Source: a virus
Lineage: Duplodnaviria; Heunggongvirae; Uroviricota; Caudoviricetes
Direction: 5' to 3' (one strand)
Length of the DNA stretch: 30,232 nucleotides
Virus record (IMG/VR): IMGVR_UViG_2897333091_000004
Position numbers and translations under genes: made by a program. Within the stretch, counting starts at the first letter, position 1; each line of letters starts with the position of its first letter. The notes under the pieces were generated by a model that had not been told where the DNA came from, ran no database searches, and worked only from the letters and a program-made list of their open reading frames with translations. Positions 3,017-29,491 of the stretch are shown in pieces.

Positions 3017-3116
3017 NNNNNNNNNNNNNNNNNNNNNNNNNNNNNNNNNNNNNNNNNNNNNNNNNNNNNNNNNNNNNNNNNNNNNNNNNNNNNNNNNNNN
3101 NNNNNNNNNNNNNNNN
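3017..3116. other. assembly gap (100 N); the contigs on each side share an identical 127-bp terminal sequence
   Basis: 2890-3016 is identical to 3117-3243. Confidence 1.
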
Positions 3117-3275
3117 TCTTTTTCGCGTCAGAATTATGGCGGGGCGTACGGGGCCGACTTCGGTCGGGCCGGATTCTTTGCTCTCCGGTGTTGAGAACCC
3201 TGTACGTCTCGCCACCCCGAGATTCTCAACTCTGGATGGTGAGTTATTTCTATCACCGAGCAAAGAGGCCACACC
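3117..3275 (+). promoter_or_regulatory. structured 5' leader: strong UUCG-tetraloop hairpin plus nested stems that sequester the SD of the downstream gene
   Basis: Hairpin GGCCGAC-UUCG-GUCGGGCC at about 3152-3170. A central element (3171-3200) contains CTTTGCTC and GTTGAGAA, complementary to TTCTCAAC (3223-3230) and GAGCAAAG (3258-3265); the latter overlaps the AAGAGG SD of the ATG at 3276. Confidence 0.45.
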
Positions 3276-3506
3276 ATGGCAGACCGCAAACAGCACCGCG
3301 CTATCGCGGAGCGTCGTCACATCCAGACTGAAATCAACCGCAGACTTTCCCGCGCATCACGCGTCGCGCAAATCATGCACATCAATATGCTGCATGAGCG
3401 CAGCCACGCACTATCAAACATTTATTCCGCCTCTGTTTTCAGCTATCTGGCGGATGATCTGCACGAGCTTCAACAGCTCATCCAGCAGCAAAACAAACTC
3501 CATTAA
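3276..3506 (+). CDS. hypothetical small basic protein (76 aa), first gene of the replication operon
   Basis: ATG with AAGAGG SD; a near-identical paralog lies at 6320-6550. Confidence 0.6.
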   Translation: MADRKQHRAIAERRHIQTEINRRLSRASRVAQIMHINMLHERSHALSNIYSASVFSYLADDLHELQQLIQQQNKLH

Positions 3507-3578
3507 TTCCTGTTCCGGGCCTTTCCTGCACCTTGCGGCGGGAGGCCTTCGCACATCTGTAACAAGAGGATTGCCGCA

Positions 3579-3944
3579 ATGATTCTCGCCAACGACTTTC
3601 TTGAATACCTGCTCAACACAGAACGTGATCTTGCCGCTCGCGTGCGTGATCGTTATGACATGTACCTGAAATCCCTGCCTGTACCGCAGCTCGCTGACGG
3701 AAAGATTGTTATTGATGGTCGCTACATGATTGACAGCCACGAGGGAAATTACAGGCTTTACCGCATTGAAGGTGGCACCCCGTCCGTTATTGGCATTTAC
3801 CAGCGCCCATCCTCTGCAATCGTCGATGTGATTGCCGACAGCATCCGCATCACACATCGCCATGCCGACACAGAAGACACCGTGCTGGAAATTCAGCGGC
3901 TGGCTACCGTCTGCCGCGACACCCTGAATGGCATGACGAAGTAA
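3579..3944 (+). CDS. hypothetical protein (121 aa) immediately upstream of gpA; positional analogue of the P2 B / 186 CP-type replication accessory genes
   Basis: ORF ending 6 nt before the gpA start; weakly similar to its counterpart at 6623-7012. Confidence 0.55.
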   Translation: MILANDFLEYLLNTERDLAARVRDRYDMYLKSLPVPQLADGKIVIDGRYMIDSHEGNYRLYRIEGGTPSVIGIYQRPSSAIVDVIADSIRITHRHADTEDTVLEIQRLATVCRDTLNGMTK

Positions 3945-3950
3945 ATCACT

Positions 3951-6060
3951 ATGACGGCAGAGTACATCAGGGACTGGCAACAACCGCGCCACGCAGTAGG
4001 ACGTGAAGGAACGGGGATCCCCGTTCCTGAATCCGCGCTTTCCTCCTGGCTGGATGCCTACCGGGTAGAGAACGAGCGCCGCCAGGAAATGGCTGATGCG
4101 GCGTTCTCCGCCACGCCGCTGGGCAACCTGATTAATAAAAGCCTGGACGCACAGGAAAAACAGGACAAAACCATCACACTGGCAGGAGACGCCAGAAAGC
4201 AGGTACGCGGCGCGGTGGATGAAGCCATGGCCTCGCTGCGCCTGCTGCCATCCTATCTGCGCGATCCGCTTATTCGCCACCTCTCCTTCCTGCGCAAAAA
4301 ACAGGAATCTGACCGCCAGAAAGGTAAAAAGAACCAGCAGGCTGAACGCTACGCGCGCGGGACCCTGCGCAAAATATTCGAACGTCTGGACCGCACCGAC
4401 CACCGCTGGCTGACACCGGGTTATCGCTCCCTTGCCGGACGCGAACGCCTGGATGATTTGCTTTACCTCCCGCAACTCAACAAGCACCAGATACAGACGC
4501 TGGCCACCATGACGGCAGCGATGTTCAGCAGCACCTTCGAAAAACTCTGCGATGGCTTTGGCGCGACCGATGGCGAGCTGACCATGGATGTAACCCTGAA
4601 GGCGTATCAGATGCTGGCCCGCATGGCGTTACACCTGCACGCCATGCCTCCACATTATGACGCACTGACAACAGACAAAGACCGGAGGAACGAACCGGAC
4701 ACGGAGCTGCTGCCGGGCGCAGTCCTTCGCCTGACCTGTGCGCAATGGTGGAAACGCAAACTGTGGCTGTTACGTTGCGAGTGGAGAGAAGAACAACTCC
4801 GCGCCACCTGTCTGGTTTCCAGAAAAACATCGCCCTATCTGAGCCAGGACGCGTTAAGCGAGTTTCGCGCACAGCGCGAGAAAACACGCGATTTCCTGAA
4901 AAGTTTCATGCTGGAAAATGAAGACGGGTTCACGATTGATCTCGAGACGGTGTATTACGCGGGAGTAAGTAACCCGGTTCACCGTAAGGCAGAAATGATG
5001 GCCACCATGAAGGGGCTGGAACTTCTGGCCGAAGCCCGTGGCGACAAAGCGGTGTTTCTGACTGTCACCTGCCCGTCAAAATACCACGCCACAACAGAGA
5101 ACGGTCATCCGAATCCCAAATGGAACGGGGCCACCATGCGCGACTCCAGCGATTATCTGGTTAACACGTTTTTTGCGGCGGTCCGCAAAAAACTGAACCG
5201 CGACGGCCTGCGCTGGTATGGCATCCGCACGGTGGAGCCTCACCATGACGGCACCGTGCACTGGCATATGATGGTCTTTGCTCATCCGGAAGAAATCGAC
5301 AGCATCGTGGCCATCACCCGCGATATTGCCATTCAGGAAGACCGCCACGAGCTGGGCAATGATATTACTCCGCGCTTTAAGGTGGAGTACGTCGACGGCT
5401 CCAAAGGCACGCCAACCAGCTACATCGCCACCTACATCGGAAAAAACCTGGACAGCCGCGCCGTGGATGGAATCGACCCGAAAACGGGCAAACCACGCGT
5501 TGACCACGAAACCGGAAAATCAATGGCCGAGAGCGTGGAGCGCGCCATCGGCTGGGCGCGCCTTCATCGGGTCCGCCAGTTCCAGTTCTTTGGCATCCCC
5601 TCCCGTCAGGTGTGGCGTGAACTGCGCCGCCTTGCCAGCCAGATGGCACGCAACCCGGAAGGCCCGCAACGGCTGAAGGATGACGCAATGGATGCGGTAC
5701 TCGCTGCCGCTGATGCCGGATGTTTTGCCACCTACATTGAAAAACAGGGTGGCGTACTTGTTCCGCGCAAGGACTACCTGATTCGCACAGCCTACGACCT
5801 CGCAGATGAGCTGAACGATTACGGCGAACAGAGTGTACAGATTTACGGGATCTGGTCGCCATTCATCGGGGAATCCTCCCGTGTGTGCACGCATCCGGAT
5901 AACTGGAAGCTGGTAAGACGTAAACCGGAAGCGGAAGACAGCGCCCGCGAAAATGGTTTTGACCTTCAGGGCGGCCCTGCCGCCCCTTGGACTCGTGGCA
6001 ATAACTGTCCCCGTGTACAGGAAACGGACAACAACGGGACAGAACAGCCGGAAGAACGGC
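3951..6060 (+). CDS. A: P2 gpA-like rolling-circle replication initiator (HUH endonuclease), allele 1; 3' end cut by the contig edge
   Basis: HUH motif in GTVHWHMMVFAHP and paired catalytic tyrosines in TSYIATYIGKN (YxxxY), the hallmark of phiX174-A/P2-A superfamily initiators. The track ORF continues through the N run artificially. Confidence 0.75.
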
Positions 6061-6160: not shown

Positions 6161-6319
6161 TCTTTTTCGCGTCAGAATTATGGCGGGGCGTACGGGGCCG
6201 ACTTCGGTCGGGCCGGATTCTTTGCTCTCCGGTGTTGAGAACCCTGTACGTCTCGCCACCCCGAGATTCTCAACTCTGGATGGTGAGCTATTTCTATCAC
6301 CGAGCAAAGAGGCCACACC
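6161..6319 (+). promoter_or_regulatory. second copy of the structured leader (first 127 bp identical to 3117-3243)
   Basis: Identical sequence, including the UUCG hairpin and the SD-sequestering stem, ahead of the ATG at 6320. Confidence 0.45.
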
Positions 6320-6550
6320 ATGGCAAACCGCAAACAACAGCGCGCATACGCTGCGCGTCGTCACATCCAGACTGAAATCAACCGTAGACTTTTCCGCGCA
6401 TCACGCGTCGCGCAAATCATGCACATCAATATGCTGCATGAGCGCAGCCACGCGCTATCGAACATCTATTCCGCCTCTGTTTTCAGCTATCTGGCGGATG
6501 ATCTGCGCGAGCTGCAACAACTCTTCCAGCAGCAAAACAAACTCCATTAA
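6320..6550 (+). CDS. hypothetical small basic protein (76 aa), paralog of 3276-3506
   Basis: About 90 percent identical translation (MANRKQQRAYAARRHIQTEINRR...). Confidence 0.6.
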   Translation: MANRKQQRAYAARRHIQTEINRRLFRASRVAQIMHINMLHERSHALSNIYSASVFSYLADDLRELQQLFQQQNKLH

Positions 6551-6622
6551 TTCCTGTTCCGGGCCTTTCCTGCACCTTGCGGCGGGAGGCCTTCGCACAT
6601 CTGTAGTAAAGAGAATTGCAGC

Positions 6623-7012
6623 ATGATTGACGCTCATGACTTCACAAGATGGGTGCGCACACAGGACACCCGTCTGGCTCCCGTTCTTCAGGGATTATTT
6701 GATCTCTACATCCGTGGTCGTGACAACAGAGCACGCACCACAAAACCGGAGAATGCAGACACCCTTTATTTCACAGTAGACGACTGCTACCGCGTGGACT
6801 TCACACCACACGGGCTGGCGTTGCACTGCCTGACACCACACGGAGAATCACTGCTGGCGTATTACGACTCCCCGGCCTCCGTATTTGCGGCAATGCTGGC
6901 GCATCGCACTGCTGGCGGGTGTGCCTCGCTGAGTGAATACACCGCTGAATTTAACCGCCTTTCTGCCCTCTTCTCGCAGGAGTGGCAGCGCGTGACGGGA
7001 TACCAGCCATGA
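6623..7012 (+). CDS. hypothetical protein (129 aa) upstream of gpA allele 2; divergent counterpart of 3579-3944
   Basis: Its stop overlaps the gpA allele-2 start (ATGA at 7009-7012). Confidence 0.55.
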   Translation: MIDAHDFTRWVRTQDTRLAPVLQGLFDLYIRGRDNRARTTKPENADTLYFTVDDCYRVDFTPHGLALHCLTPHGESLLAYYDSPASVFAAMLAHRTAGGCASLSEYTAEFNRLSALFSQEWQRVTGYQP

Positions 7013-9136
7013 ATGAGTTTGCATGGAGCTGGAATGAACCACGGCCAGCCATTGATCCGGCCAGATTTACGGAGCACAGGCAGGAAACTGAAACCGACCT
7101 GCAACGCGCCATCCGTTACTACCTTGAGGCAGACAAAAAGGCTCTGGAAGAACAGGAAGCGAAGGAGGAAGCCTTTTTCGCACAATCCACCGTGGGTAAA
7201 AAACTCATGGCATCCCTTGAGGAAGCCGGACAGCGTGAAAAGCTGGCACAAAGCATCATCAGCAAGCGTCAGGCAACAGAACAAGACCCGGTGGCCCGTG
7301 CTTTTGCCACACTGAAGGTGCTTCCCGTTTATCTGCGTGAACCTCTGAGCCGCCACCTCTCTTTCCTGCGCAAAAAACAGGAAGCCGATCGCCAGAAAGG
7401 CAAAAAGAGCTGGCAGGCTGAACGCTACGCGCGCGGAACCCTGCGCAAAATATTCGAACGCCTGGACCGCACCGACCACCGCTGGCTGACACCGGGTTAT
7501 CGCTCCCTTGCCGGACGCGAACGCCTGGATGATTTGCTTTACCTGCCGCAGCTCAACAAGCACCAGATACAGACGCTGGCCACCATGACGGCGGCGATGT
7601 TCAGCAGCACCTTCGAAAAACTCTGCGATGGCTTTGGCGCGACCGATGGTGAGCTGACCATGGAGGTGGCACTGAAGGCGTATCAGATGCTGGCCCGCAT
7701 GGTGTTACACCTGCACGCCATGCCTCCACATTATGACGCACTGACAACAGACAAAGACCGCAAGAACGAACCGGACACGGAACTGCTGCCGGGCGCAATC
7801 CTCCGCCTGACCTGTGCGGAATGGTGGAAACGCAAACTGTGGCTGTTACGTTGCGAGTGGCGGGAAGAACAACTCCGCGCCGCCTGTCTGGTTTCCAGAA
7901 AAACATCGCCCTATCTGAGCCAGGACGCGTTAAGCGAGTTTCGCGCACAGCGCGAGAAAACACGCGATTTCCTGAAAAGTTTCATGCTGGAAAACGAAGA
8001 CGGGTTCACGATTGATCTCGAGACGGTGTATTACGCGGGAGTAAGTAACCCGGTCCACCGTAAAGCAGAAATGATGGCCACCATGAAGGGGCTGGAACTT
8101 CTGGCCGAAGCCCGTGGCGACAGAGCGGTGTTTCTGACTGTCACCTGCCCGTCAAAATACCACGCCACAACAGAGAACGGTCATCCGAATCCCAAATGGA
8201 ACGGGGCCACCATGCGCGACTCCAGCGATTACCTGGTTAACACGTTTTTTGCGGCGGTCCGCAAAAAACTGAACCGCGATGGCCTGCGCTGGTATGGCAT
8301 CCGCACGGTGGAGCCTCACCATGACGGCACCGTGCACTGGCATATGATGGTCTTTGCACATCCGGACGAGATTGAAACCATCGTGTCCCATGTCTGCGAT
8401 ATTGCCATTCAGGAAGACCGCCACGAGCTGGGCGATGACATAACTCCGCGTTTTAAGGCTGAGTACGTAGACGGCTCAAAAGGCACGCCAACCAGCTACA
8501 TCGCCACCTACATCGGAAAGAACCTGGACAGCCGCGCCGTGGATGGCATCGACCCGAAAACGGGCAAGCCACGCGTTGACCACGAAACCGGAAAATCAAT
8601 GGCAGAGAGCGTGGAACGCGCCATCGGCTGGGCGCGCCTTCACCGGGTCCGCCAGTTCCAGTTCTTTGGCATTCCCTCTCGTCAGGTATGGCGTGAACTC
8701 CGCCGCCTTGCCAGCCAGATGGCACGCAACCCGGAAGGCCCACAACGGCTGAAGGATGATGCAATGGATGCGGTACTCGCTGCCGCTGATGCCGGGTGTT
8801 TTGCCACCTACATTGAGAAACAGGGCGGCGTACTTGTTCCACGCAAAGACTACCTGATTCGCACCGCCTACGACCTCGCAGATGAGCTGAACGATTACGG
8901 CGAGCAGAGTGTACAGATTTACGGGATCTGGTCGCCGCTCATCGGGGAGTCTTCCCGTGTGTGCACACATCCGGATAACTGGAAGCTGGTAAGACGTAAA
9001 CCTGAAGCAGAAGACAGCGCCCGCGAAAATGGTTTTGACCTTCAGGGCGGCCCTGCCGCCCCTTGGACTCGTGGCAATAACTGTCCCCGTGTACAGGAAA
9101 CGGACAACAACGGGACAGAACAGCCGGAAGAACGGC
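7009..9136 (+). CDS. A: P2 gpA-like rolling-circle replication initiator, allele 2; continues across the gap into 9237-10076
   Basis: Same HUH and YxxxY motifs. About 97 percent identical to allele 1 after roughly residue 110, but the N-terminal ~110 residues are unrelated. The ATG at 7009 overlaps the upstream stop. Confidence 0.75.
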
Positions 9137-9236
9137 NNNNNNNNNNNNNNNNNNNNNNNNNNNNNNNNNNNNNNNNNNNNNNNNNNNNNNNNNNNNNNNN
9201 NNNNNNNNNNNNNNNNNNNNNNNNNNNNNNNNNNNN
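9137..9236. other. assembly gap (100 N); flanking contigs overlap by an identical 127-bp sequence
   Basis: 9010-9136 is identical to 9237-9363. Confidence 1.
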
Positions 9237-10076
9237 GAAGACAGCGCCCGCGAAAATGGTTTTGACCTTCAGGGCGGCCCTGCCGCCCCTTGGACTCGTG
9301 GCAATAACTGTCCCCGTGTACAGGAAACGGACAACAACGGGACAGAACAGCCGGAAGAACGGCCAGCACCGTGGCCGCAGCTCCCTGACGGCATTGAAGT
9401 GAATGAATGGATGCGCTCACTGAAACGGCACGAACGCCGGGCACTGATGCGTTCGCTGCGTGACAAACAGGCCAAAAACAGCAGTGATGAAATGCAGAAC
9501 TGGACACAGAGCCGCAAACAGCCACAGCCTTTGCCTGATAACCACGAATTACTCGCTAAAGAATGGCGGGAGTCTGCCGAATCTCTCGGCCTGCATATCG
9601 GTGAACAGCAGATGCAGCACCTGTTACGGGGCGGCAGCCTGTACGTTGACGGCAGCATCATTGCACCGCAGGGATTTGAAATTGTACGCAAACCGGATAC
9701 CCGCCCGGACAGCCGAATCACGCAGCTCTGGCAGCGCCTGAGCCGTAATCACGGCGTAAGCAGCACGGAGATCCGCCATAACCCGGTCGCCAGCTATCTG
9801 GCACAGCTCGGGGCATCAGACCCCGAAGCCGCCGCACGCCTGACATCCACACTTCAGCAGGACCAGAACACCATGAAAACACCCGTTACCGTGCTTTCTG
9901 ACATGCTGCGCGCCATTCGTGACGCAGAGCACGCACAGAGAATCAGTGAAACCACTGAACGCGCCCGCCGCAAAGCAGACCTGCTGCGGGGTAGCCTGAT
10001 CAGTGGCAACAAAAAACAGACAGAAACGGGATTCACAAATCCCGCAAATGAGCAAAAAACACGCCGCGATATATGA
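9237..10076 (+). CDS. A: C-terminal part of the gpA-like initiator (in frame with the pre-gap sequence through the 127-bp overlap)
   Basis: Frame 0 reads EDSARENGFDLQGG...TEQPEERPAPWPQLPDGIEVNEWMRSLKRHERR... without stops to 10076. The track ORF 9399-10076 is the distal part of the same frame. Confidence 0.6.
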   Translation, partial: EDSARENGFDLQGGPAAPWTRGNNCPRVQETDNNGTEQPEERPAPWPQLPDGIEVNEWMRSLKRHERRALMRSLRDKQAKNSSDEMQNWTQSRKQPQPLPDNHELLAKEWRESAESLGLHIGEQQMQHLLRGGSLYVDGSIIAPQGFEIVRKPDTRPDSRITQLWQRLSRNHGVSSTEIRHNPVASYLAQLGASDPEAAARLTSTLQQDQNTMKTPVTVLSDMLRAIRDAEHAQRISETTERARRKADLLRGSLISGNKKQTETGFTNPANEQKTRRDI

Positions 10077-10117
10077 AGCGCGCACAAAACAGGCGAAAGC
10101 GGGATTTAAAAATCCCG
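10027..10117 (+). promoter_or_regulatory. two related palindromes upstream of parM; candidate parC-like centromere/operator
   Basis: CGGGATTCACAAATCCCG (about 10027-10044) and CGGGATTTAAAAATCCCG (about 10100-10117), followed by the TTAATTAA palindrome and the parM RBS. Confidence 0.3.
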
Positions 10118-10152
10118 TAAACGGTTAATTAACCAACATAAGGAAAATCGAC

Positions 10153-11112
10153 ATGAAAATTTGTATCGACGACGGCTCCACCAACATCAAGCTGGCATGG
10201 ACTGAAAACGGCGAACGCCGCAACGCCATCAGCCCGAACAGCTTCAAGTCGGAATGGTCTGCGCCGTTCGGTGGCTCGCAGCCTGCGAACTACATGCTTG
10301 ATGGCGTGCGCTATGGTTTTGATCCGGTCAGCGATCGCTTTGTCCAGACGACCGACACGCAATACCAGTACAGCGATGTGAATGTCATTGCCATTCATCA
10401 CGCGCTGGTCAAATCAGGCATCACGCCACAGGAGGTGGATGTGGTTGTCACCCTGCCACTGAGCGAGTATTTCGACACAAACGCACAGCCGGACATGGCC
10501 AACATCAACCGCAAAAAAGCGAACGTTATGCGCCCGGTGGAGTACCAGAACGGCGAAGCATTCACTATCCGTAACGTGCGGGTTATGCCTGAATCCATTC
10601 CGGCCGGCTTTAAGGCACTGGCTGACATGAGTCCGTTTGAATCCCTGCTGATTGTGGATTTGGGCGGAACCACGCTGGATGTGGCAAAGGTTCAGGGGCA
10701 ACTGGCAGGTATCAGCCAGGTGTTTTGCGATCCACACGTAGGCGTTTCTCTGATGGCCGATGCCGTACTGTCGGTGATGGCCACTAACGGTATGCGCACC
10801 AGTCACCACATCGCCAATACCATTATCGAACATCGCCATGATGAAGCCTGGCTGCGCCAGCACATCCACAATGACGCACATTACGCCAGCCTGATGGCGG
10901 TTATTCGTGAAAAGGAAGAAACACTGAAACAACGCGTGATCCGCGCGCTGGCGGGTTTTTCGGGTTACGGGCGGGTGATGGTTGTAGGTGGAGGAGCGGA
11001 GATTGTGGCACCCGCTATCCGCGAAGCCTGCGGAGTTAATGCGACTTTCATCGCGGACGGGGTGCCACAGTTTGCTCTGGTTAATGGGCTGTACGCAATG
11101 GACAAGGAGTAA
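10153..11112 (+). CDS. parM: ParM/StbA-type actin-like plasmid segregation ATPase
   Basis: Recalled alignment to plasmid R1 ParM over the whole length: IDDGSTNIKL, ISPNSFK, YSDVNVIAIHHAL, MPESIPAGF, DLGGTTLD, VGGGAE. Confidence 0.85.
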   Translation: MKICIDDGSTNIKLAWTENGERRNAISPNSFKSEWSAPFGGSQPANYMLDGVRYGFDPVSDRFVQTTDTQYQYSDVNVIAIHHALVKSGITPQEVDVVVTLPLSEYFDTNAQPDMANINRKKANVMRPVEYQNGEAFTIRNVRVMPESIPAGFKALADMSPFESLLIVDLGGTTLDVAKVQGQLAGISQVFCDPHVGVSLMADAVLSVMATNGMRTSHHIANTIIEHRHDEAWLRQHIHNDAHYASLMAVIREKEETLKQRVIRALAGFSGYGRVMVVGGGAEIVAPAIREACGVNATFIADGVPQFALVNGLYAMDKE

Positions 11113-11116
11113 ACCA

Positions 11117-11318
11117 ATGACGACACCAACCAGACGGATAAGTTTCTATCTGAAGCCCGCCGCCGTCAAGAACGAAGGCGAAGCATGCGCCTGGCTGGAC
11201 AGCCTTACACCAGAAGCCCGCAAAAGCGGCCAACGCGTGGCTTTTCTGGCCGGGCTGGCACTTCTGAAAATGAATCCGGCAGAGGCTTACCGACTGGCTG
11301 CATGGGCTGATGATGAGG
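11117..11318 (+). CDS. parR: ParR-type centromere-binding adaptor, N-terminal part (cut by the gap)
   Basis: ATG 5 nt after the parM stop. MTTPTRRISFYLKPAAV...LDSLTPEARKSGQRVAFLAGLALL resembles the R1 ParR ribbon-helix-helix N-terminus. Confidence 0.6.
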
Positions 11319-11418: not shown

Positions 11419-11721
11419 GACATAACCGTCTTTGATGGCACCGATATAATCCACTGTAACAGCTGCGCCATTTTCAGTTGAGTAAACGGTCTCATTGCGA
11501 TGGTCTTCTTCATGGCTCCATCCCTTACCCGTAAATACTGCCACTCTTCCCGGAATGTATTCGCCCGGGTCAATACCAGTGGAACAAGCGGGCATACTTA
11601 CGCCAGTATTAATATATTCATCAGACCAGCCCGTATACTCAGATGTTTCAGCATCATAATAAAAACAACGCATATCGCCCGGCACTGTAGCCAGCCCATT
11701 TTCATCAAAAACAGGTTTCAT
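11419..11721 (-). CDS. tail fibre assembly protein (lambda Tfa / Mu U family), N-terminal part; C-terminus lost in the gap
   Basis: MKPVFDENGLATVPGD...IPGRVAVFTGKGWSHEEDHRNETVY matches the conserved N-terminal Tfa region (recalled lambda Tfa motif VAVF...W.LVEDHRGKTVY). Confidence 0.6.
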
Positions 11722-12218
11722 TATTTAGCCCTCACCAGAAAGTTAAATGCAATATTTCGCGGTCTGACAGCAACAAAATTCACACCATCACCCACAGAGT
11801 TACTGGTGAAATTAAATCGTGAAAATCCTGGCTGATTTCCGGCGATGCCATCATGAAAGTTAATTGCGTGTCCTGCACCTCCGCCTATATTCCCGGCAAA
11901 CTGAGAAAAGTTTGTAGCTTCCTGCCAGCTTAATAATTCGCGACCACCATCGGCACCTCGCCCGTCATCCCAGATACGAATGAAATCACCGCGGGCTTCA
12001 GGTAATACCAGTGAAGGAAACACTTTCGCCAGCACAGGGTAATCAGAGGCAGAAAATTTCGCCCCGTTGAACTTCAAAAACACCATACTGGACCAGCTGT
12101 CGATTACAGTATTTGGCATTGCAGCGGACGGCCAGAAGAACGGAACGCCAATAGCTGGAGCACCTTCTCCCAAACCAACGTTTAAGAAAATGCAGAGATT
12201 ACGGCTAACTGGCATCAT
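11721..12218 (-). CDS. tail fibre C-terminal variable domain, probably a silent invertible-segment copy with no start of its own
   Basis: Glycine-rich tail-fibre-like C-terminal sequence directly followed by the tfa gene; its N-terminus runs through the candidate crossover site next to the invertase gene, as in the Mu G or P1 C segment. Confidence 0.5.
   Translation of the reverse strand: MMPVSRNLCIFLNVGLGEGAPAIGVPFFWPSAAMPNTVIDSWSSMVFLKFNGAKFSASDYPVLAKVFPSLVLPEARGDFIRIWDDGRGADGGRELLSWQEATNFSQFAGNIGGGAGHAINFHDGIAGNQPGFSRFNFTSNSVGDGVNFVAVRPRNIAFNFLVRAK
12165..12190. promoter_or_regulatory. candidate Hin/Gin/Pin-family crossover site (gix/hix-like)
   Basis: TTCTCCCAAACCAACGTTTAAGAAAA shares about 17 of 26 positions with the recalled gixL sequence, including the AAACC...GTTT core; located about 55 bp upstream of the invertase start. 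Confidence 0.35.
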
Positions 12219-12245
12219 CCCCGGTTTTTATTCAGGGGATCCATC

Positions 12246-12845
12246 ATGCTTATTGGCTATGTCCGCGTATCAACAAATGACCAGAATACAGAATTGCAGC
12301 GTAACGCGCTGGAGTGCGCAGGATGTGAACTGATTTTTGAAGATAAAATCAGCGGAACGAAATCAGCCAGACCGGGATTGAAAAAACTGCTCAGAACGCT
12401 ATCAGAAGGAGATACGCTGGTTGTCTGGAAGCTGGACAGACTGGGCAGAAGTATGAAACACCTGATCACGCTTATTGAGGAATTGCGGGAAAAAGGTGTT
12501 AATTTCCGTAGTCTAACGGACAGCATTGACACATCAACACCCATGGGGCGTTTCTTTTTTCACGTCATGGGAGCTTTAGCCGAAATGGAACGTGAATTAA
12601 TTGTAGAGCGTACACTGGCCGGGCTGGCAGCAGCACGCGCACAAGGACGCATTGGCGGACGTCGCCCGAAGTTGACAAAAGAACAACACGAGCAAATAGC
12701 GAGGCTGATTAAAAACGGTCATGACAGGAAACAACTGGCGATCATTTACGACATCGGCATATCGACGATTTATCGTTATCACCCTGTAGGCGATATACAG
12801 GCTGAAGAAACAACCAGGCAGACTCAGGAAAATGAAAACCGCTAA
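12246..12845 (+). CDS. pin: serine-recombinase DNA invertase (Pin/Gin/Cin/Hin family)
   Basis: MLIGYVRVSTNDQNTELQ... with the catalytic Ser in the VRVSTNDQ block and a C-terminal HTH; very close to recalled E. coli Pin sequences. Confidence 0.9.
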   Translation: MLIGYVRVSTNDQNTELQRNALECAGCELIFEDKISGTKSARPGLKKLLRTLSEGDTLVVWKLDRLGRSMKHLITLIEELREKGVNFRSLTDSIDTSTPMGRFFFHVMGALAEMERELIVERTLAGLAAARAQGRIGGRRPKLTKEQHEQIARLIKNGHDRKQLAIIYDIGISTIYRYHPVGDIQAEETTRQTQENENR

Positions 12846-20017: not shown

Positions 20018-20088
20018 CAGGCAGAATTGCCGGAGTAACAAAAAAGCGATAGATTACGCGCGGGTGCCTTTCGGCTGATGGTCGGAGG

Positions 20089-20188: not shown

Positions 20189-20520
20189 GTGACGGCGATA
20201 CCGTAGAGCAGATGGTTATACATCCGTTCATTGGCTTTGAGCAGCCCTTCATTCAGCGCCGGAGAACAGACCTGTGATATCAGGTTATCCAGTGCTTTTT
20301 CCGATAACTGGCAGGTTTTGCCACCCGCTATAAAGGAACGCTTCGACAGCTCTTCACGCAGAACCGGACGCAGCACCACCTCATCCTGTTTATAGCCCCG
20401 GTAATCCATAATCTGTTTCGGAGATAAAAACGTCCAGCCGAGGCTGGTCAGTAACGTCAGTGCCGGAATTTTGGCGCTGTATTCTTCCTGGAATTTAGGC
20501 GTGTACGTCTGGTTCATCAT
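20189..20520 (-). CDS. hsdR: N-terminal fragment of a probable type I restriction endonuclease R subunit (cut by the contig edge)
   Basis: Last gene of the hsdM-hsdS operon, preceded by an AAAGGA RBS; N-terminus has the general HsdR_N-like character. Identification is by position and weak pattern only. Confidence 0.4.
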
Positions 20521-20569
20521 TAATCCTTTTCTTTCTGGCGCTACTCGCTACTGGTCACATGAAGATTCA

Positions 20570-21253
20570 TCAATGCAGACAGCACTTCTTAAATTTTTTA
20601 CCGCTGCCACACGGACACGGGTCATTTCGCCCGGGCATGTTTTCTGCCCCCTTCACTGGAACAGGCCGGGATGATGCCTCTGACATTCTCACCGACAACC
20701 AGTGCTGGTAAAGCGCCAGTGCCGCAGGCTGAATGAGAGTAATACTCTGTTCAAATTGAACAGGTGACATTTTCTCAACCACTGGGAAGTTCTTTTCGAT
20801 ACCATGAAGGGCTATCGCCTCCAGCGAGGGACGTAAGGCCTCTGGCAAGGCTGACCAGTCATCCAGAGACCGGCCTTTCATATACCCGAAACACCACTCT
20901 TCGACGATTGTATATGTCTTCCCCTTCACCTCACGTCCATTGAAAATCGGTTCAAACTGTTCAGGGGCCTCATACAGGCAGCCAGCGATATCGTTCATAT
21001 GCTGAAAACACAGCCCCACAAAACGCGTCATCTCTTTTTCAGTGGTCCAGTGAGGGTAGTAGTCACCTCGCCCCCAGATAGCACTAAGCCAGGTATTAGG
21101 GGGGATCATATTCGGGCCAGAGACAATCGCTGTCAGAAAGCCATCCAGCTCAGAGAAACAGAGCACAGAGTCATCATTGCCGTATTTCAGCAACACCTCT
21201 TCCAGCCAGTCGATTTCCCGGTCAATCAGCGGCCCGCTTTTCGTCAGTTTCAT
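20570..21253 (-). CDS. YecA-like protein with a C-terminal SEC-C zinc-binding motif
   Basis: Terminal [20 protein letters not shown] is a canonical SEC-C motif; the body resembles the UPF0149/YecA family. The start ATG overlaps the hsdS stop (ATGA). Confidence 0.75.
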
Positions 21254-22476
21254 TCGGCAACCGCCTCATCGACCTTAACACGACGTTTGCCAGTCAATAG
21301 CTGTTGCATCAGGGCTTTTTTCTCATCTCTCAGGCAGGCGAGTTTTTTCTCCAGCGTGGAGATTTCGGTGTCAGCAGCGGACAGCACGGCGGCGATTTTT
21401 TGTTGCTCTTTAATAAATGGGCAAGAAAAGCTTAAAGTTTCAAAATCTTTCTTGGAAAGTTCTAAAAATGTTGAGCCAGATGATTTTTTGATCATCTCAT
21501 TTGTGTTCATTTGCAACAAATAATAAATAAATTCGATATTAAACCCTTCATTCGGAATGATGTTTTTAAAACCTTGATTGGTACAAATTTCCGATGTCGA
21601 AATTGCTAAAGCACCAATGGTAGCTCTTGTACATACCATCAAACTACCTTTTGGCAAAAGAACAGCTGAGCTATTTAGTAATCCCGCAGGAGTAATTTTT
21701 CTACTAGTATTGCTAACGAACCTACCCGTTAATGCAGTAACATCAGTTGGGGTAAGCCATAGAATATCGCCTTCCCAATACATGGCCATGTTTGTATCAG
21801 GTGTTCCACCGGATACAACTTTGCCCATTTGTATTAGTTTAGTAATTTTCCACTCCCCACTAAACCTCACCCCATTCTCATCCAGCAACCGTTTATTCCC
21901 GGTAAGCAATTGCTGCATCAGGGCTTTTTTCTGCTGTTGACTGTTGGCGAGAAGGCTTTCCGTCACCGAAATTGCCTTATCCCAGGCGGTCAGAATTTGA
22001 GATATTTTATCTTGTTCACAAATAGCAGGAGTTTTTATGTTTAACGCTCTAATATCAGAAAGGTTAATTCTAGAAAAGGTAGAACCACCTGCACTTTTTG
22101 CTATCTGTCGCTGGACTAAATCTGATTGTAATGTGTAGTAAATAAACCGCCAATCTGCATGGATTGCTTTAATTAAGACAGTGTCTTGCCCTAATACAAA
22201 TGGCTTTTTGGAATCCACATAGCTAACAACACCGACAGACTGGTTACGACTCATAACCAAATCACCTTGTTCAACAACACAGTGATCCATCAGAGAGCGA
22301 TATTCTTCTTCTGTAACTCTTTTTACAGGTGAAATCAGATCTAAGGCTCCCCATTTTATCGTCCCCGGTGAGACAAGTGGTATTCCCGATTTAACGTACT
22401 CAGGAGTCCTGTGTTTGCAATCGATTATCGACGCAACCGATGAGAGTTTCTGAGATGACCACCCCTTAGGAATCAT
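21250..22476 (-). CDS. hsdS: type I restriction-modification specificity subunit
   Basis: Two target-recognition halves separated and followed by the repeated conserved block [11 protein letters not shown]; overlaps the 3' end of hsdM. Confidence 0.85.
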
Positions 22477-23989
22477 AACCCAACTCCTTCAAATATCCAG
22501 CCATCTCCGTTTCCAGCTTCGCCAATTCCGCTTTCAGTTGCTCACGCTCAGCACGTACCGCCAGCAAATCGATCTCTTCCTCTTCTTCAAAGGTATCGAC
22601 ATAGCGCGGAATATTGAGGTTGTAATCGTTGTCCTGAATCTCTTTCAGGCTGGCAAGGTAGGCATATTTCTCGACGTTATCGCCATCACGGTAGGTCTTG
22701 ACGATTTTCTTAATGTTTTCTTCGCTAAGCTGGTTCTGGTTTTTACCTGCCTTGAATTCACGACTGGCATCGATAAACAGCACCTTGTCATCAACTTTCT
22801 GCTTTTTGAAAATCAGAATCGCAGCCGGAATCCCCGTACCGTAGAACAGTTTTTCCGGCAGACCAATTACCGCATCCAGCAAATTTTCGTCGATCAGTTT
22901 CTGGCGAATTTTACCTTCGCTGGAGCCACGGAAAAGCACACCGTGTGGCACAACTACGCCCATACGGCCAGTTCCCGGTTTCAGGGTTTCGATCATATGC
23001 GAGATAAAAGCGTAATCTCCTTTAGTCTTCGGCGGTACACCGCGACGAAAACGGCCAAACTTATCGTTCTCGGCCTCGTCATGGCCCCACTTATCGAGGC
23101 TGAACGGTGGGTTAGCGGTCACGATATCAAACAGCATCAGGTCGCCATTTTTATCGAGCAGCTTCGGGTTGCGAATGGTATCGCCCCACTCGATTTTATG
23201 GTTGTCTTCCCCGTGCAGGAACATATTCATTTTCGCCAGCGACCACGTAGAACCGATCGCTTCCTGACCGAACAATGCATAGTTACGACTATCATGCCCG
23301 GAGACAATTTTACGCCCACACTTCATCAATAATGAACCGGAACCACAGGCTGGATCGCAGATGGTATCACCCGGTTGCGGATCGAGCAGTTCTGCAATCA
23401 GGTCCGAAACTTCCGGCGGGGTATAGAACTCCCCGGCTTTCTGCCCACCGCTGGCGGCAAAGTTTTTGATCAGGTATTCGTAAGCATTGCCGATAACGTC
23501 CAGCGTACCGACACGACTCGGCTTCAGGTTGAGATCTTCACCGGCGAAGTCTTCCAGTAGCTGACGAAGGATGGTGTTTTTCTGTTTTTCTTCGCCAAGA
23601 CGATCGGTGTTAAACGAAATATCCTGGAACACGCTTTTCCCGGCATCTTTCAGTTTGGTTCCGTTGGCTTCTTCGATTGCATGCAGAGCCTGATCGATAC
23701 GCTCACCGTTACCCGGCTCATGGCGGCGTTCGTACAGCGCATAAAAGCTGGCACTTTTTGGCAGTACAAAACGCTCGTTGGCCATCATCGCTTCAATCAG
23801 TTCCGGCACATCGCCATACTGTTCTTTGTATTCGTCATAGTGATCCTGCCAGACATCTGAAATGTACTTGAGGAACAGCATGGTAAGGATAAAGTCTTTA
23901 TAGGTATCAGCACTGATGGTGCCACGGAACGTATCACACGCGGCCCACAGGGCTTTGTTGATCGTGTCCTGACTGATTTTGTCGTTCAT
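22466..23989 (-). CDS. hsdM: type I restriction-modification N6-adenine DNA methyltransferase
   Basis: AdoMet-binding motif DPACGSGSLL and catalytic NPPF motif; 507 aa. Confidence 0.9.
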   Translation of the reverse strand: MNDKISQDTINKALWAACDTFRGTISADTYKDFILTMLFLKYISDVWQDHYDEYKEQYGDVPELIEAMMANERFVLPKSASFYALYERRHEPGNGERIDQALHAIEEANGTKLKDAGKSVFQDISFNTDRLGEEKQKNTILRQLLEDFAGEDLNLKPSRVGTLDVIGNAYEYLIKNFAASGGQKAGEFYTPPEVSDLIAELLDPQPGDTICDPACGSGSLLMKCGRKIVSGHDSRNYALFGQEAIGSTWSLAKMNMFLHGEDNHKIEWGDTIRNPKLLDKNGDLMLFDIVTANPPFSLDKWGHDEAENDKFGRFRRGVPPKTKGDYAFISHMIETLKPGTGRMGVVVPHGVLFRGSSEGKIRQKLIDENLLDAVIGLPEKLFYGTGIPAAILIFKKQKVDDKVLFIDASREFKAGKNQNQLSEENIKKIVKTYRDGDNVEKYAYLASLKEIQDNDYNLNIPRYVDTFEEEEEIDLLAVRAEREQLKAELAKLETEMAGYLKELGYDS

Positions 23990-24207
23990 GAATCATCCTG
24001 GTCTGAAGAAAAAGCTAGCGATGCAGGGCTTTGCATCTTAAAAATTGCGGTAAATGATACCGTAAGATGCCTCCCCTGACACGCCAATATCGCAGCATTC
24101 AGGTTTGCATCATCCCCGTAATATCGACATGAGACAGACTGACACAACCGGGCTCGTCACTCGCTAAAAACCAATTATCTTAGTAAGATAGCATCCATAT
24201 TAGCCAT

Positions 24208-24233
24208 GGTGTAAAACTGCCGTTGGGGTAATG
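24208..24233 (+). repeat. direct repeat copy 1 (GGTGTAAAACTGCCGTTGGGGTAATG)
   Basis: 24 of 26 identical to 26180-26205, with weaker similarity extending about 25 bp further. Confidence 0.6.
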
Positions 24234-24361
24234 ATGATCCATATATCACCCGTTCTGGTGTGTGAAGCTGACATGATCCATAATCGGCAACGTTGATGCC
24301 CTTTGATTGTAATAGTGGCCGTCAATGTGATTCCCTTGTTGACTGGAGGTCTCCGGATAGT

Positions 24362-24628
24362 ATGAGTATTGCTAATTGCGTTATCGGCCCACTTTACGAT
24401 GAGCAAATAAAAAAAACACTTATGTATGCTGACCATAAATTCAAGCGGCTAATGAATACACGAATGTCGTTACTCGAACATTTATCACCCCACTATGACT
24501 TATCTTCCATGTTCAGCTATGAGTTGGAGGGAAGAGTTTTTCGGATTAAATTGATCAAGCCTGAGATTAAATTATCTCGCCAGCAGTTGATCTTCTCCTC
24601 ACTCTTTTTAGAGCAAGATTTTCGGTAA
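24362..24628 (+). CDS. hypothetical protein, probably truncated by the IS1 insertion (stop codon supplied by the IS1 terminus)
   Basis: ORF (MSIANCVIGPLYDEQIKK...) ends at a TAA formed by the first bases of IS1 (GGTAATG); AT-rich. Confidence 0.35.
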   Translation: MSIANCVIGPLYDEQIKKTLMYADHKFKRLMNTRMSLLEHLSPHYDLSSMFSYELEGRVFRIKLIKPEIKLSRQQLIFSSLFLEQDFR

Positions 24629-24638
24629 TGACTCCAAC

Positions 24639-25142
24639 TTACTGATAGTGTTTTATGTTCAGATAATGCCCGATGACCTTGTCATGCAGCTCCACCGATT
24701 TTGAGAACGACAGTGACTTCCGTCCCAGCCTTGCCAGATGTTGTCTCAGATTCAGATTATGTCGCTCAATGCGCTGAGTGTAACGCTTGCTGATAACGTG
24801 CAGCTTTCCCTTCAGGCGTGATTCATACAGCGGCCAGCCATCCGTCATCCATACCACGACCTCAAAGGCCGACAGCAGGCTCAGAAGACGCTCCAGTGTG
24901 GCCAGAGTGCGTTCACCAAAGACGTGCGCCACAACCGTCCTCCGTATCCTGTCATAAGCGTAAAACAGCCAGCGCTGACGTGATTTAGCACCGACGTAGC
25001 CCCACTGTTCGTCCATTTCAGCGCAGACAATCACATCACTGCCCGGTTGTATGCGCGAGGTTACCGACTGCGGCCTGAGTTTTTTAAGTGACGTAAAACC
25101 GTGTTGAGGCCAACGCCCATAATGCGTGCACTGGCGCGACAT
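24639..25142 (-). CDS. insB: IS1 InsB (transposase frame, expressed as InsAB' by a -1 frameshift)
   Basis: 167-aa ORF overlapping the insA 3' end in the -1 frame. Confidence 0.9.
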
Positions 25143-25336
25143 CCGACGCCATTCATGGCCATATCAATGATTTTCTGGTGCGTACCGGGCTGAGAGGCGG
25201 TGTAAGTGAACTGTAGTTGCCATGTTTTACGGCAATGAGAGCAGAGATAGCGCTGATGTCCGGCAGTGCTTTTGCCGTTACGCACCACGCCTTCAGTAGC
25301 GGAGCAGGAAGGACATCTGATGGAAATGGAAGCCAC
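25061..25336 (-). CDS. insA: IS1 InsA
   Basis: [42 protein letters not shown]..., an InsA variant. Confidence 0.95.
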
Positions 25337-25428
25337 GCAAGCACCTTAAAATCACCATCATACACTAAATCAGTAAGTTGGCAGCATTACCCGGAGCCAC
25401 CCCAATAACAAGTTATACAGAGAACATA

Positions 25429-25785
25429 ATGAAAATGGCTTACGGTTCAAAAATGGGGCATTTAAATATCTACAGTGAACATGATAAAGTACTTAACACG
25501 ATATACCCTCTCGTAGAGTCAGTAACGCCAATTGGGGTTCGGGAGGTGAGATTCAGACCTGCTCGGGTGATCAACTGGAAGTGGGATATTGGTCACACTG
25601 AATATATTACTTCAAACAGGATTGATTCATTAACACACTGGTTAAATGTTACCTGTGCCGATTTAGCTGATCCAGACGTAGAGCTCACTGACGACGACAT
25701 AAAATTGTTTAATGATATTATTGATCTTGCGAATTTAACACATCATAAAAACACTGTCGCACCTAAATTAATATCATTTGAGTAG
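25429..25785 (+). CDS. hypothetical protein (118 aa), AT-rich
   Basis: ATG at 25429 (MKMAYGSK...). The frame is open back into the IS1 end, so the true N-terminus may have been displaced by IS1. Confidence 0.4.
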   Translation: MKMAYGSKMGHLNIYSEHDKVLNTIYPLVESVTPIGVREVRFRPARVINWKWDIGHTEYITSNRIDSLTHWLNVTCADLADPDVELTDDDIKLFNDIIDLANLTHHKNTVAPKLISFE

Positions 25786-25866
25786 TTAAAAAAAGGTTGC
25801 ATTATAACGGGAGTGTATATTTACTCCCGTTAAGTTTCATATTTTATAGAATTGATATGGATTCGA

Positions 25867-26094
25867 TTAAAAATTTCGTCTAACTCGTTCCCTTATCAAA
25901 TTTGCCAGCCTTACCCTTCCAGGTGAAATAGTTTCCGTTACAATTTCAACTCTCAACAAATCACGCTGTCCGGTTCGGCGACTGACCGCGAAACGCTGAC
26001 ATATATCATTAACCGATACCGTATTACCGGTATACAGTTGTAGTAATATCCAGCACAGCCTTTCTGCGATCCTTTCACCGCGAGTTTTATACAT
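25867..26094 (-). CDS. short HTH protein resembling the N-terminal wHTH of WYL/BrxR-type regulators; possibly a truncated remnant
   Basis: ERLCWILLQLYTGNTVSVNDICQRFAVSRRTGQRDL fits the HTH pattern of WYL-domain regulators, but the ORF is only 75 aa with no WYL domain. Confidence 0.4.
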   Translation of the reverse strand: MYKTRGERIAERLCWILLQLYTGNTVSVNDICQRFAVSRRTGQRDLLRVEIVTETISPGRVRLANLIRERVRRNF

Positions 26095-26179
26095 CTGTAA
26101 AACCTTCAGTTATCGTCAACGATGACATAGTCCACCTCAAAACCTACATAACTGACTGTATTCATGAACATTTATTACC

Positions 26180-26205
26180 GGTGTAATACTGTCGTTGGGG
26201 TAATG
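26180..26205 (+). repeat. direct repeat copy 2 (GGTGTAATACTGTCGTTGGGGTAATG)
   Basis: See copy 1; the two copies bracket the IS1-containing 2-kb segment. Confidence 0.6.
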
Positions 26206-26245
26206 GATTAACCGTTATCACCCTGCTACAGGAGAATGCTCCATA

Positions 26246-26279
26246 GGGGGCAAAAACCACGAGGGATCTGAGATCCCCC
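26246..26279 (-). terminator. rho-independent terminator for the minus-strand four-gene cluster
   Basis: On the minus strand: GGGGG ATCTCAGATCCC hairpin followed by TCGTGGTTTTT; about 120 nt downstream of the last gene. Confidence 0.5.
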
Positions 26280-26395
26280 GTGTCTGCACTTGTTTATGCG
26301 AACAGCCAGGAAAAAGAGACATCATCTCCATGCTGTGATGCACGCCACATGCAGTAGATTACAAAGCCGCCCGCTTTCTTCCTGTTCATAACGGG

Positions 26396-26830
26396 TCAAC
26401 AACTTTCCACAGTTACCGTTACCCGGTAAATCCCCATAGAGAGATACTCCATAAAATTACGCTCCCACAGGGACCAGAGTTCATTCCTCTCTGCTGCCAG
26501 TGAAATATCCCCAATCAGATAATGGAAGACATAATTCCCCGACCAGCAGAAATCAATTTCTTTTTCCAGCTCAGGGTAGACACGCCCCATATAACTAAAA
26601 TCTGTGACATAATCAAAATACCATTCATTATTCTTACGGATAAACCGTATTTCAACGGGATGAAAGCCCCCGGATTCTGCACTGTAGTCCGGATCACGGA
26701 AATTAATAACCACTGCCTCAGTTATTTTTTGTAAAACCTGATTTGCCAGAAGAGTAGTAATATGCTGCTGAAATTCTTTAGTAACAGGCAGATTTAATCC
26801 TGCCTGTTTTAAGGCATATTGGGTTTGCAT
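26396..26830 (-). CDS. hypothetical protein (144 aa), last gene of the four-gene cluster
   Basis: Long AT-rich ORF co-directional with the cluster; no recognisable motif. Confidence 0.55.
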   Translation of the reverse strand: MQTQYALKQAGLNLPVTKEFQQHITTLLANQVLQKITEAVVINFRDPDYSAESGGFHPVEIRFIRKNNEWYFDYVTDFSYMGRVYPELEKEIDFCWSGNYVFHYLIGDISLAAERNELWSLWERNFMEYLSMGIYRVTVTVESC

Positions 26831-26902
26831 AATAAATTTTCCTTTAGAAAGTAAATAGCGGTGTGTGGTGATTTCTGGTTGTATAACAGTGCAGGAAATA
26901 AA

Positions 26903-27436
26903 TTAATCCTCTGTAATCTTTTCCTGGCTACTGATCGTATTAAGTTTATTCAACCGCTCCCTCCAGTCCGGGTATAATACATGAGTAAATAACTTCTCTG
27001 GATGTGCCTCCAGCAGACATATATCCGGGGAGCGTAAAACAGCAGCCAGAAAACCTGCATTGTTGGCGCTTGCCCCTTTGAATAACGGCCTGAATACTCC
27101 GGATGAGAAGCCGGTAGCAGGTTGTGTTTCCAGAACGGTTGCAATCTTTGAAAGTGAGATCCAGTCCTTAGAGAACAACCCTCCACAGCCATTTGCCACC
27201 AGACGAAGATAAAGTTCATTGTCCACCTCTGATATCGCCAGTTGCCATGTCAGCATACCACTTGCCTTAGGACTGATTTTTTCTGCCTGGCCTGTTTCAA
27301 TGAGCAACTGATAGTCTTTTACATCAGATAATGTTTGTTCATCTGCACTGAGATTTTCATGAATAACCTCTGCCTCATTTTTAATCTCCTTCGAAACTGA
27401 CTCAACATTATTTTTAACTAATTTTGATTTACTCAT
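26903..27436 (-). CDS. hypothetical protein (177 aa)
   Basis: Co-directional; contains a GCGG segment; no recognisable domain. Confidence 0.55.
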   Translation of the reverse strand: MSKSKLVKNNVESVSKEIKNEAEVIHENLSADEQTLSDVKDYQLLIETGQAEKISPKASGMLTWQLAISEVDNELYLRLVANGCGGLFSKDWISLSKIATVLETQPATGFSSGVFRPLFKGASANNAGFLAAVLRSPDICLLEAHPEKLFTHVLYPDWRERLNKLNTISSQEKITED

Positions 27437-27461
27437 TTTGCGTTCCTGGTTTTGCTTGTGT

Positions 27462-27833
27462 TTAATAGCGTGATTCGGCCATAGAAATTAATAAATCAAT
27501 ACCCTTCAGAGGGCAATCGGGGTGAAATAACAGATAAATACCGTTCCCGTTATCTTCCGTAACAGAAAGCATCAGGTAATAGTCATCTGTCAGACGGACT
27601 ACAAATTCTGGATTTGCAATTAACTGATGAATCACATTTAATACCTGCGTTTTAATATCTTCAGGTACATCATCGGGCTCGACATATATTAATGTCACCC
27701 CGACTTCATCCCAGAAACTCATTGCAGAGTATTCATCTTCAAATGGGAGTACCAGCTCTGTTTTCAACAGACTCATTACTGACTCCGGAAGAAGGAGCGA
27801 CGGCAGGTCTTGCCAATTCGAGACAAATTTCAT
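27462..27833 (-). CDS. hypothetical acidic protein (123 aa)
   Basis: Co-directional, 25 nt upstream of the next gene; strongly acidic composition. Confidence 0.55.
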   Translation of the reverse strand: MKFVSNWQDLPSLLLPESVMSLLKTELVLPFEDEYSAMSFWDEVGVTLIYVEPDDVPEDIKTQVLNVIHQLIANPEFVVRLTDDYYLMLSVTEDNGNGIYLLFHPDCPLKGIDLLISMAESRY

Positions 27834-27926
27834 TGAATAATCCTCATAAACAAAAAACCCGATACGTTTTAAGTATCGGGGTTACATAGACAGGCTAAAG
27901 AATCTGGAATTGCCTTCAGTGGTCAT

Positions 27927-28178: not shown

Positions 28179-28193
28179 ACTCATACTCCACGT

Positions 28194-29411: not shown

Positions 29412-29491
29412 ATTTATCCTCATGTATCTGATTGATATCATGGAGACAATATATATCTGAAGGTGTTTTTATTACGGGGCAGTATTGAAGA

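Follow-up and report, generated by a model that had tools for sequence, protein, structure and literature searches.

Why should strong purifying selection preserve a complete ParMRC-type module in an integrating phage of the P2 family? The question is posed by a stretch of 30,232 nucleotides (nt) of viral DNA (IMG/VR record IMGVR_UViG_2897333091_000004, Caudoviricetes; hereafter the window), in which the gene of the gpA-type replication endonuclease is followed by the genes of an actin-like ATPase, ParM, and of its putative adaptor, ParR (Table 1). The cassette belongs to a P88-like temperate phage integrated into the chromosome of an Escherichia-type host, and it constitutes that phage's type II (actin-type) partition module, intact. 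With a probability that we put at roughly 0.6, it would serve to position or segregate the circular, extrachromosomal form of the phage DNA, and not to keep the prophage as a plasmid.

Table 1. Coordinates of the partition cassette and of the adjoining replication gene in the window.
Feature	Position	Strand	Evidence
gpA-type rolling-circle replication endonuclease	6982..10076 (6982-9136 joined to 9364-10076)	+	Pfam, PHROG, 127-nt overlap, identity to P88
Candidate parC-like centromere/operator	10010..10121	.	two 39-nt direct repeats (10010-10048, 10083-10121) with 18-bp palindromes
parM, actin-like ATPase of type II partition systems, 319 aa, intact	10153..11112	+	Pfam, PDB, IncF ParM, PHROGs, pN/pS
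parR-like adaptor gene (PF10784, R1 ParR/StbB family), codons 1-67 of 103	11117..11318	+	Pfam, BLASTP

The ParMR genes and the phage that carries them

ParM matches two Pfam families over the whole of their models, StbA_N (PF06406; E 2e-82, 275 bits against a cut-off of 24.6) and the ParM C-terminal domain (PF21523; E 1e-68, 230 bits, cut-off 27.4), as well as the ParM of plasmid R1 in the PDB (1mwk; E 7e-93, residues 2-316); it is 47% identical to an IncF ParM. The nucleotide-binding motifs of the actin fold (DxGxxxxK, DxGGxT, GGG) are all present and all align with those of R1: DDGSTNIK at position 6 (phosphate 1), DLGGTT at 169 (phosphate 2) and GGGA at 279 (adenosine). A ribosome-binding site, AAGGA, lies 8 nt upstream of the gene. 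The protein is under strong purifying selection, with a non-synonymous polymorphism (pN) of 0.004 and a synonymous polymorphism (pS) of 0.078 across 67 distinct alleles (ratio 0.054), and it is intact in 84 of 87 related loci; this constraint lends indirect support to the prediction that it polymerises, with ATP, into dynamically unstable filaments.

The start codon of parR lies 4 nt past the ParM stop codon (at the end of the stop codon +5), behind the ribosome-binding site AAGGAG, and the two genes are presumably coupled in translation. The product matches PF10784 (E 3e-23); against the same family the full-length P88 protein scores 85.9 bits and R1 ParR 104.5 bits (cut-off 25), both over residues 6-76. 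In BLASTP these two are 33% identical over the N-terminal residues 1-61 (E 2e-8), the R1 query being 100% identical to the gene that adjoins parM on IncF plasmids. The truncation of parR in the window comes from the end of a contig and not from mutation, its 3' third being absent from the whole window; P88 and its relatives have the full-length protein of 103 residues, and ParR is intact in 83 of 84 loci.

The gene upstream matches Pfam Phage_GPA (E 4e-129), with a C-terminal part that corresponds to PHROG 91/6857, and its product is 95-97% identical to gp16 of Escherichia phage P88; a second allele of it starts at 3951. Its stop codon (10074-10076) is followed by a spacer of 76 nt and then by parM. 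A preliminary description of this DNA, made from its letters and reading frames, had placed a homologue of R1 ParM, with a ParR-like gene right behind it, directly downstream of gpA, and is borne out on all of these points.

The contig that carries the cassette is 97.5% identical to P88 at the nucleotide level over all of its 2,082 nt (the 3' end of gpA, ParM and ParR), and the contigs of the window are 85-98% identical to the early, replication and tail regions of this phage. P88 (NC_026014), a temperate phage of the P2 family induced from E. coli K88, carries an integrase, C and Cox and is, by the taxonomy of its record, the type member of Xuanwuvirus (Peduoviridae); matches to Pfam Phage_GPA and GPD, together with the near-identity to P88, place the phage of the window among these P2-like viruses. 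Nothing of substance differs between the two: the window ParR is cut by the contig end, and the contig is the collapsed copy of two prophages (see below). The same module is found in PhiSM of Citrobacter rodentium, in P884B11 and 520873, in O157:H7 EDL933 and in about 1,300 complete E. coli genomes, with the same gene order, the palindromes at the same place, and ParM at least 99% identical in protein sequence.

The cassette is thus already known, as a standard annotated module of the common P88-like prophages of the P2 family. RefSeq names gp16-gp18 of P88 'replication endonuclease', 'plasmid segregation protein ParM' and 'partition protein', and the PHROGs families of both ParM and ParR are called 'partition protein'. 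With both genes named by RefSeq/PGAP and PHROGs, and the element among the commonest prophages of E. coli, the sequence feature itself carries little weight; the weight lies with the biological question asked above. The P88 paper mentions neither ParM nor partition nor segregation, and in the PhiSM paper the cassette appears solely as a 'fitness' gene; open-access literature and preprints yield nothing relevant on ParM with P2-like prophages, Xuanwuvirus or StbA, or on phage-plasmids with Peduoviridae.

The cassette is present in 1,303 of 5,426 complete E. coli genomes (24%), O157:H7 EDL933 and O104:H4 included. The gpA type that precedes it, judged by its C-terminal part, occurs at 1,533 places in these genomes and ParMR at 1,451, so that about 95% of such gpA genes are followed by the cassette; the order gpA-ParM-ParR-(short variable genes)-portal is also found in relatives from Hafnia, Cronobacter and Citrobacter. 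The interval between the parR stop codon and the portal gene ranges from about 0.45 to 2.85 kb (53 loci), as expected from the earlier statement that the region after gene A is a hotspot for cargo, and a GC-rich hairpin with a 10-bp stem (CATCAGGGCGCATCCGCCCTGATG), 6 nt past the parR stop codon of P88 (10137-10160), separates the conserved ParMR module from this variable cargo. The P2-type accessory hotspot begins after parR, and ParMR is a conserved backbone module, not sporadic cargo. The suggestion that a partition module had been acquired as cargo consequently fails, on the linkage to the gpA type, the purifying selection, the position of the hotspot downstream of ParR, and the lack of a close plasmid relative. 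Apart from P88-like elements labelled plasmid, the nearest genuine plasmid ParM (IncL/M) is 52.6% identical, so that no recent plasmid donor can be named; with the same elements set aside, tblastn finds no plasmid homologue of ParR at E 1e-3. A scan of one genome per species finds the phage-type ParR nowhere but in Salmonella, in E. albertii and in two contigs that are likely contaminants (Vagococcus sp., Fredinandcohnia humi), and it yields no remoter relatives with which covariation could be analysed. In those two assemblies, labelled Firmicutes, the P88-type ParR is 90-93% identical and almost certainly stems from enterobacterial contamination. Among the cargo after parR, P88 gp19 (10195-10527) is a small protein with a ClpX-type C4 zinc finger (PF06689, E 8e-18).

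The candidate cis site and the adaptor

Upstream of parM lie two exact palindromes, CGGGATT-N4-AATCCCG, at 10027-10044 and 10100-10117, one in each of the 39-nt repeats; the first sits within the last codons of the gpA coding sequence. Within each palindrome a distance of 11 bp, equal to one helical turn and to the period of the R1 iterons, separates the centres of the half-sites GGGATT, and from one palindrome to the other the spacing is 73 nt, or about seven turns. These are the only matches of the motif in the window, where 0.16 are expected by chance and two or more occur in 1 of 100 shuffles; P88, too, has only two (two or more in 0 of 100 shuffles), against a chance expectation of about 0.1-0.2 for either sequence. 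Of the upstream sequences, 52 are distinct, and 50 of these have the 73-nt spacing. A relative from Hafnia with a ParR of 74% identity retains the cores (GGGATTCATGAATCCC and GGGATTTGAAAATCCC) at the same spacing, while the sequence between the palindromes and around them has diverged and the stop codon of gpA is shifted into palindrome 1. It is this retention of palindromes and spacing between diverging flanks that makes them the best candidate for a centromere or operator, a role for which the preliminary description had reasonably proposed them.

The phage system resembles parMRC of R1/NR1 (parA/stb) in several respects: the order is the same, cis site-parM-parR, a similar context, CATAAGGA, surrounds the ribosome-binding site, full-length ParM is 47% identical and shares every nucleotide-binding motif, and ParR belongs to the same Pfam family. 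The replicon, however, is a plasmid in R1 and an integrating phage here, and the cis sites differ. parC of R1 consists of ten 11-bp A/C-rich direct iterons, in two clusters that flank a TTGACA promoter; the IncL/M plasmid with the closest genuine plasmid ParM has T-rich iterons of about 10-11 bp, in two clusters 73 nt apart, the same distance as between the phage palindromes. Upstream of the phage parM there are no R1-like 11-bp direct iterons (the same tool finds iterons in the R1-type and IncL/M controls) but the two 18-bp palindromes, and no consensus promoter between them; the plasmid controls resemble the phage site in being built of two repeat clusters that flank a core. The phage cis site would thus be of a different design from an iteron parC, with ParR predicted to bind the palindromes.

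Alternatively, the palindromes may be no centromere at all, but - strand terminators or RNA hairpins that insulate gpA from antisense transcription, or sites of another protein, the real ParR site lying elsewhere or being some other feature of the A-rich leader. Both fold into stable hairpins and are followed by T-rich runs on the - strand, where they look terminator-like in the window as in P88, and the known ParR proteins of this family bind direct iterons, not palindromes. Yet in P88 no - strand gene is transcribed through the region, and Rfam gives no match to it. Across the 52 distinct upstream sequences, variants alter one half-site at a time, with no compensatory pair and with mismatches on one strand or the other, which would fit a protein-binding site better than an RNA stem; their counts of wobbles and mismatches are mixed across the two strands and leave the - strand RNA reading neither supported nor excluded. 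The strict 73-nt spacing and the conserved 39-nt units, in turn, fit phased protein binding, and ribbon-helix-helix proteins commonly bind inverted repeats. On balance we hold it to be unlikely that the palindromes are anything other than the site of ParR.

ParR is markedly diverse between alleles, whereas ParM is almost invariant. Its residues 1-17 (MTTPTRRISFYLKPAAV), however, are essentially unchanged in alleles that are otherwise just 52-57% identical, which matches the conservation of the palindrome half-sites; by homology to R1 ParR, this segment probably includes the DNA-reading strand of a ribbon-helix-helix. This predicted fold is assigned by Pfam and by homology to R1 only, because the AlphaFold2 model of the monomer (mean predicted local distance difference test, pLDDT, of 57.6) is too low in confidence for a fold search; by sequence, ParR has no meaningful match among solved structures. 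The model has helices at 20-29, 32-52 and 54-61, leaves the N-terminal strand unresolved, and shows a further helix at 85-100 after a low-confidence stretch at 65-84. Beyond residue 65, a variable linker rich in Pro, Gln and Thr leads to a C-terminal motif, NI(R/Q)ALFPE, which is conserved in all alleles, and the modelled helix that carries it is the obvious candidate for a ParM-binding tail. R1 ParR is longer (117 residues against 103).

Three minor observations concern the same stretch. Between the palindromes, a conserved GATATA element was spotted by eye only, and we place no weight on it. Each 39-nt repeat codes for a peptide of the pattern GF(T/K)NP(A/V)N, but not in the same frame, the 73-nt spacing shifting it by +1: one peptide, KKQTETGFTNPAN, lies at the C-terminus of gpA, and the other, KQAKAGFKNPVNG, is read in a short open reading frame (10003-10128) that overlaps gpA; this similarity is probably incidental to the duplication at the DNA level. 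A programmed frameshift from gpA into the short frame was considered and rejected, since it would have to be +1, a slippery motif in the appropriate frame is lacking, and gpA of the Hafnia relative ends inside palindrome 1.

A proposed role on circular phage DNA

Between gpA and parM, including the stretch between the palindromes, no sigma-70 promoter reaches consensus and no + strand terminator is found, so that parMR is probably the tail of the early replication operon, expressed when the C repressor is absent. The module would then stay silent as long as the lysogen is repressed and become active once the phage genome exists as a free circle. E. coli genomes carry up to three copies of the cassette, and the window two; that two or three chromosomal copies are tolerated suggests that the cassette is inactive or harmless when integrated.

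Phages of the P2 family replicate by gpA-initiated rolling circles that yield monomeric circles, which are also the substrate of packaging; with such circles being both replicated and packaged, the intracellular phage DNA is physically plasmid-like. On it, each palindrome would take up two ParR dimers at its GGGATT half-sites (four in all), one helical turn from each other, the palindromes themselves lying seven turns apart; the C-terminal helix of ParR, held on the disordered linker, would capture or cap growing filaments of ParM-ATP, and these would push copies of the circular extrachromosomal genome apart. The system could do so between infection and integration or once the prophage has been excised, and also on the monomeric circles that gpA produces, the effect being that phage DNA is distributed or positioned for efficient replication, packaging or lysogenisation. 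The delivery of a copy into both daughter cells before integration and the retention of excised circles are equally compatible with the data.

As a functional model we adopt, by analogy, AlpC/AlpA/alpS of the Corynebacterium glutamicum prophage CGP3, the closest functional precedent, in which an actin-like protein and a DNA-binding adaptor are likewise encoded by an integrated prophage. There, the adaptor AlpA binds upstream of its own operon and links circular phage DNA to actin-like AlpC filaments; the system is induced early and is required for efficient replication of the phage DNA (PMC4446434, PMC5539076). It differs in host phylum and in gene order, no close sequence relationship to it came to light, none having been tested for, and its function is experimental in CGP3 but inferred for the P88-like phages. 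P88 and PhiSM are inducible and genetically tractable, and ParMRC of R1 is the best-understood machine for DNA segregation in bacteria, which makes it easy to ask whether actin-driven positioning of phage DNA is general in Gram-negative temperate phages.

Several points weigh against a role of ParMR on transient phage circles. In open-access papers and preprints, no study of the P88-like parMR cassette was found, and thus no experiment on it. Binding of ParR to the palindromes is our inference; the palindromes offer four half-sites in place of the ten direct iterons of R1, these half-sites tolerate single-sided changes, and on the - strand both palindromes, with their T-rich runs, resemble intrinsic terminators. 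The structure model of ParR is of low confidence (pLDDT 57.6), and the phage protein is without the C-terminal 34 residues of R1 ParR, which contain the known ParM-binding peptide of the latter, so that a contact of the phage protein with ParM is putative. Co-transcription with gpA is deduced solely from the absence of consensus signals. Finally, a circular 'plasmid' record of 34,461 bp in a complete E. coli genome is a whole P88-like phage with its integrase, from which it follows that episomal forms exist at least transiently.

This last point bears on a different reading, one of the two put forward in the preliminary description, namely that the cassette marks a facultative phage-plasmid, kept as low-copy circles that are replicated by gpA, partitioned by ParMR/parC and protected by hok/gef. 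A gene of the Hok/Gef toxin family lies near ogr in P88 (34928-35068; 1291-1431 in another P88-like record), just beyond the contig end at window position 20088. P88-like phages with this gene and ParMR hold homologues of both stability loci of R1, parA (parMRC) and parB (hok/sok), which would suit such a lifestyle, as would a cassette that looks complete and is under purifying selection. In a collection of 50,697 phage records, moreover, the only other phage with a ParM of this type (StbA/ParM, 47.8% identical over the full length) is D6, a bona fide phage-plasmid; D6, however, is a 91-kb P1-like plasmid prophage without chromosomal integration, whereas the P88-like phages are integrating members of the P2 family with Xuanwuvirus records of 31-40 kb. 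The distribution speaks against this reading: complete E. coli genomes have the cassette at 1,451 places, 1,449 of them in chromosomes and 2 in plasmids, and integrase, C and Cox are kept in all examined elements. The cassette records in plasmid databases are megabase-sized 'plasmids', a linear, degraded prophage fragment riddled with IS1, and the one circular record of 34.5 kb; they are mostly mis-assigned fragments. In a query that spans attP, the start of the circular record coincides with the prophage end, as an excised circle or a loop in the assembly graph would yield. We know, furthermore, of no case in which gpA rolling-circle replication supports regulated copy control of a plasmid. 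The cassette is thus no evidence of a phage-plasmid lifestyle, and a plasmid state of the P88-like phages is a minor state at best; to the facultative phage-plasmid we give very little credence. For annotation pipelines it follows that ParM/ParR beside a phage replication gene should not, on its own, count as evidence of a plasmid or phage-plasmid.

That the cassette serves competition, with ParR/parC or ParM from the prophage interfering with incoming related phages or with ParMRC plasmids by partition incompatibility or exclusion, or brings the host some other benefit, is very unlikely: it does adjoin the P2-type accessory hotspot, which in P2 houses the exclusion genes tin and old and here holds variable cargo after ParR, it occurs in several copies per genome (up to three, with two in the window), and diverse ParR alleles beside a near-invariant ParM could result from conflict or incompatibility avoidance, but PADLOC defence models give no match, no promoter consensus provides for lysogenic expression, the alleles all agree in the DNA-reading N-terminus of ParR and in the palindromes and so do not look like distinct incompatibility specificities, and the parC repeats of R1-type and IncL/M-type plasmids are unrelated in sequence to the phage palindromes.

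The reading that we prefer, action on the circular phage genome, may have a wider form. In it, P88-like phages, which about one E. coli genome in four carries, would use a plasmid-derived actin spindle in their normal biology, either for a transient, partition-stabilised episomal phase, in which the monomeric circles of gpA are segregated so that each daughter cell receives one before integration, or, at the extreme, for a facultative plasmid state with hok/gef behind it, on a minimal palindromic centromere unlike any characterised parC. We offer this as a tentative possibility, on the doubtful side.

Structure of the window

The window is not one continuous sequence but seven contigs joined by spacers of 100 N. 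Two pairs of neighbouring contigs share overlaps of exactly 127 nt, the signature of a k-mer assembly graph. At the spacer 9137-9236, positions 9010-9136 are identical to 9237-9363, so that gpA is continuous and the gap hides no missing sequence. Contig 3117-6060, which follows the gap at 3017-3116, and contig 6161-9136 represent one early/gpA region of the phage as two alleles of 95% identity, set side by side, and both end in the 127-mer that opens contig 9237-11318; the sampled genome thus held two P88-like prophages, or the sample was a mixture. The contig with the cassette is a collapsed repeat common to two related, co-resident prophages, and its end at 11318, inside parR, is the repeat boundary at which the two copies diverge. 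Closing the gaps on either side of it, which the preliminary description had proposed, is therefore largely moot: the first is an overlap, and the second is where the assembly passes from the common repeat to two separate prophages.

ParMR is assembled as this single contig of 2,082 nt although the flanking gpA differs by 5% between the alleles, which points to recent gene conversion or to the collapse of minor variants. From 11419 the window corresponds to P88 from 26965 onward, and the portal-to-baseplate half of the phage is missing, so that the order of the scaffold is not colinear with the phage genome; the stretch at 11419-12845 carries tail-fibre-assembly and tail-fibre genes on the - strand and a DNA invertase of the Hin/Cin type (12246-12845). 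The part of the window at 20189-30232 is unrelated to P88 and looks like a separate genomic island, with a UPF0149/SEC-C protein, HsdS and HsdM of a type I restriction-modification system, an IS1 transposase, a DUF2787 protein and a P4-type integrase.

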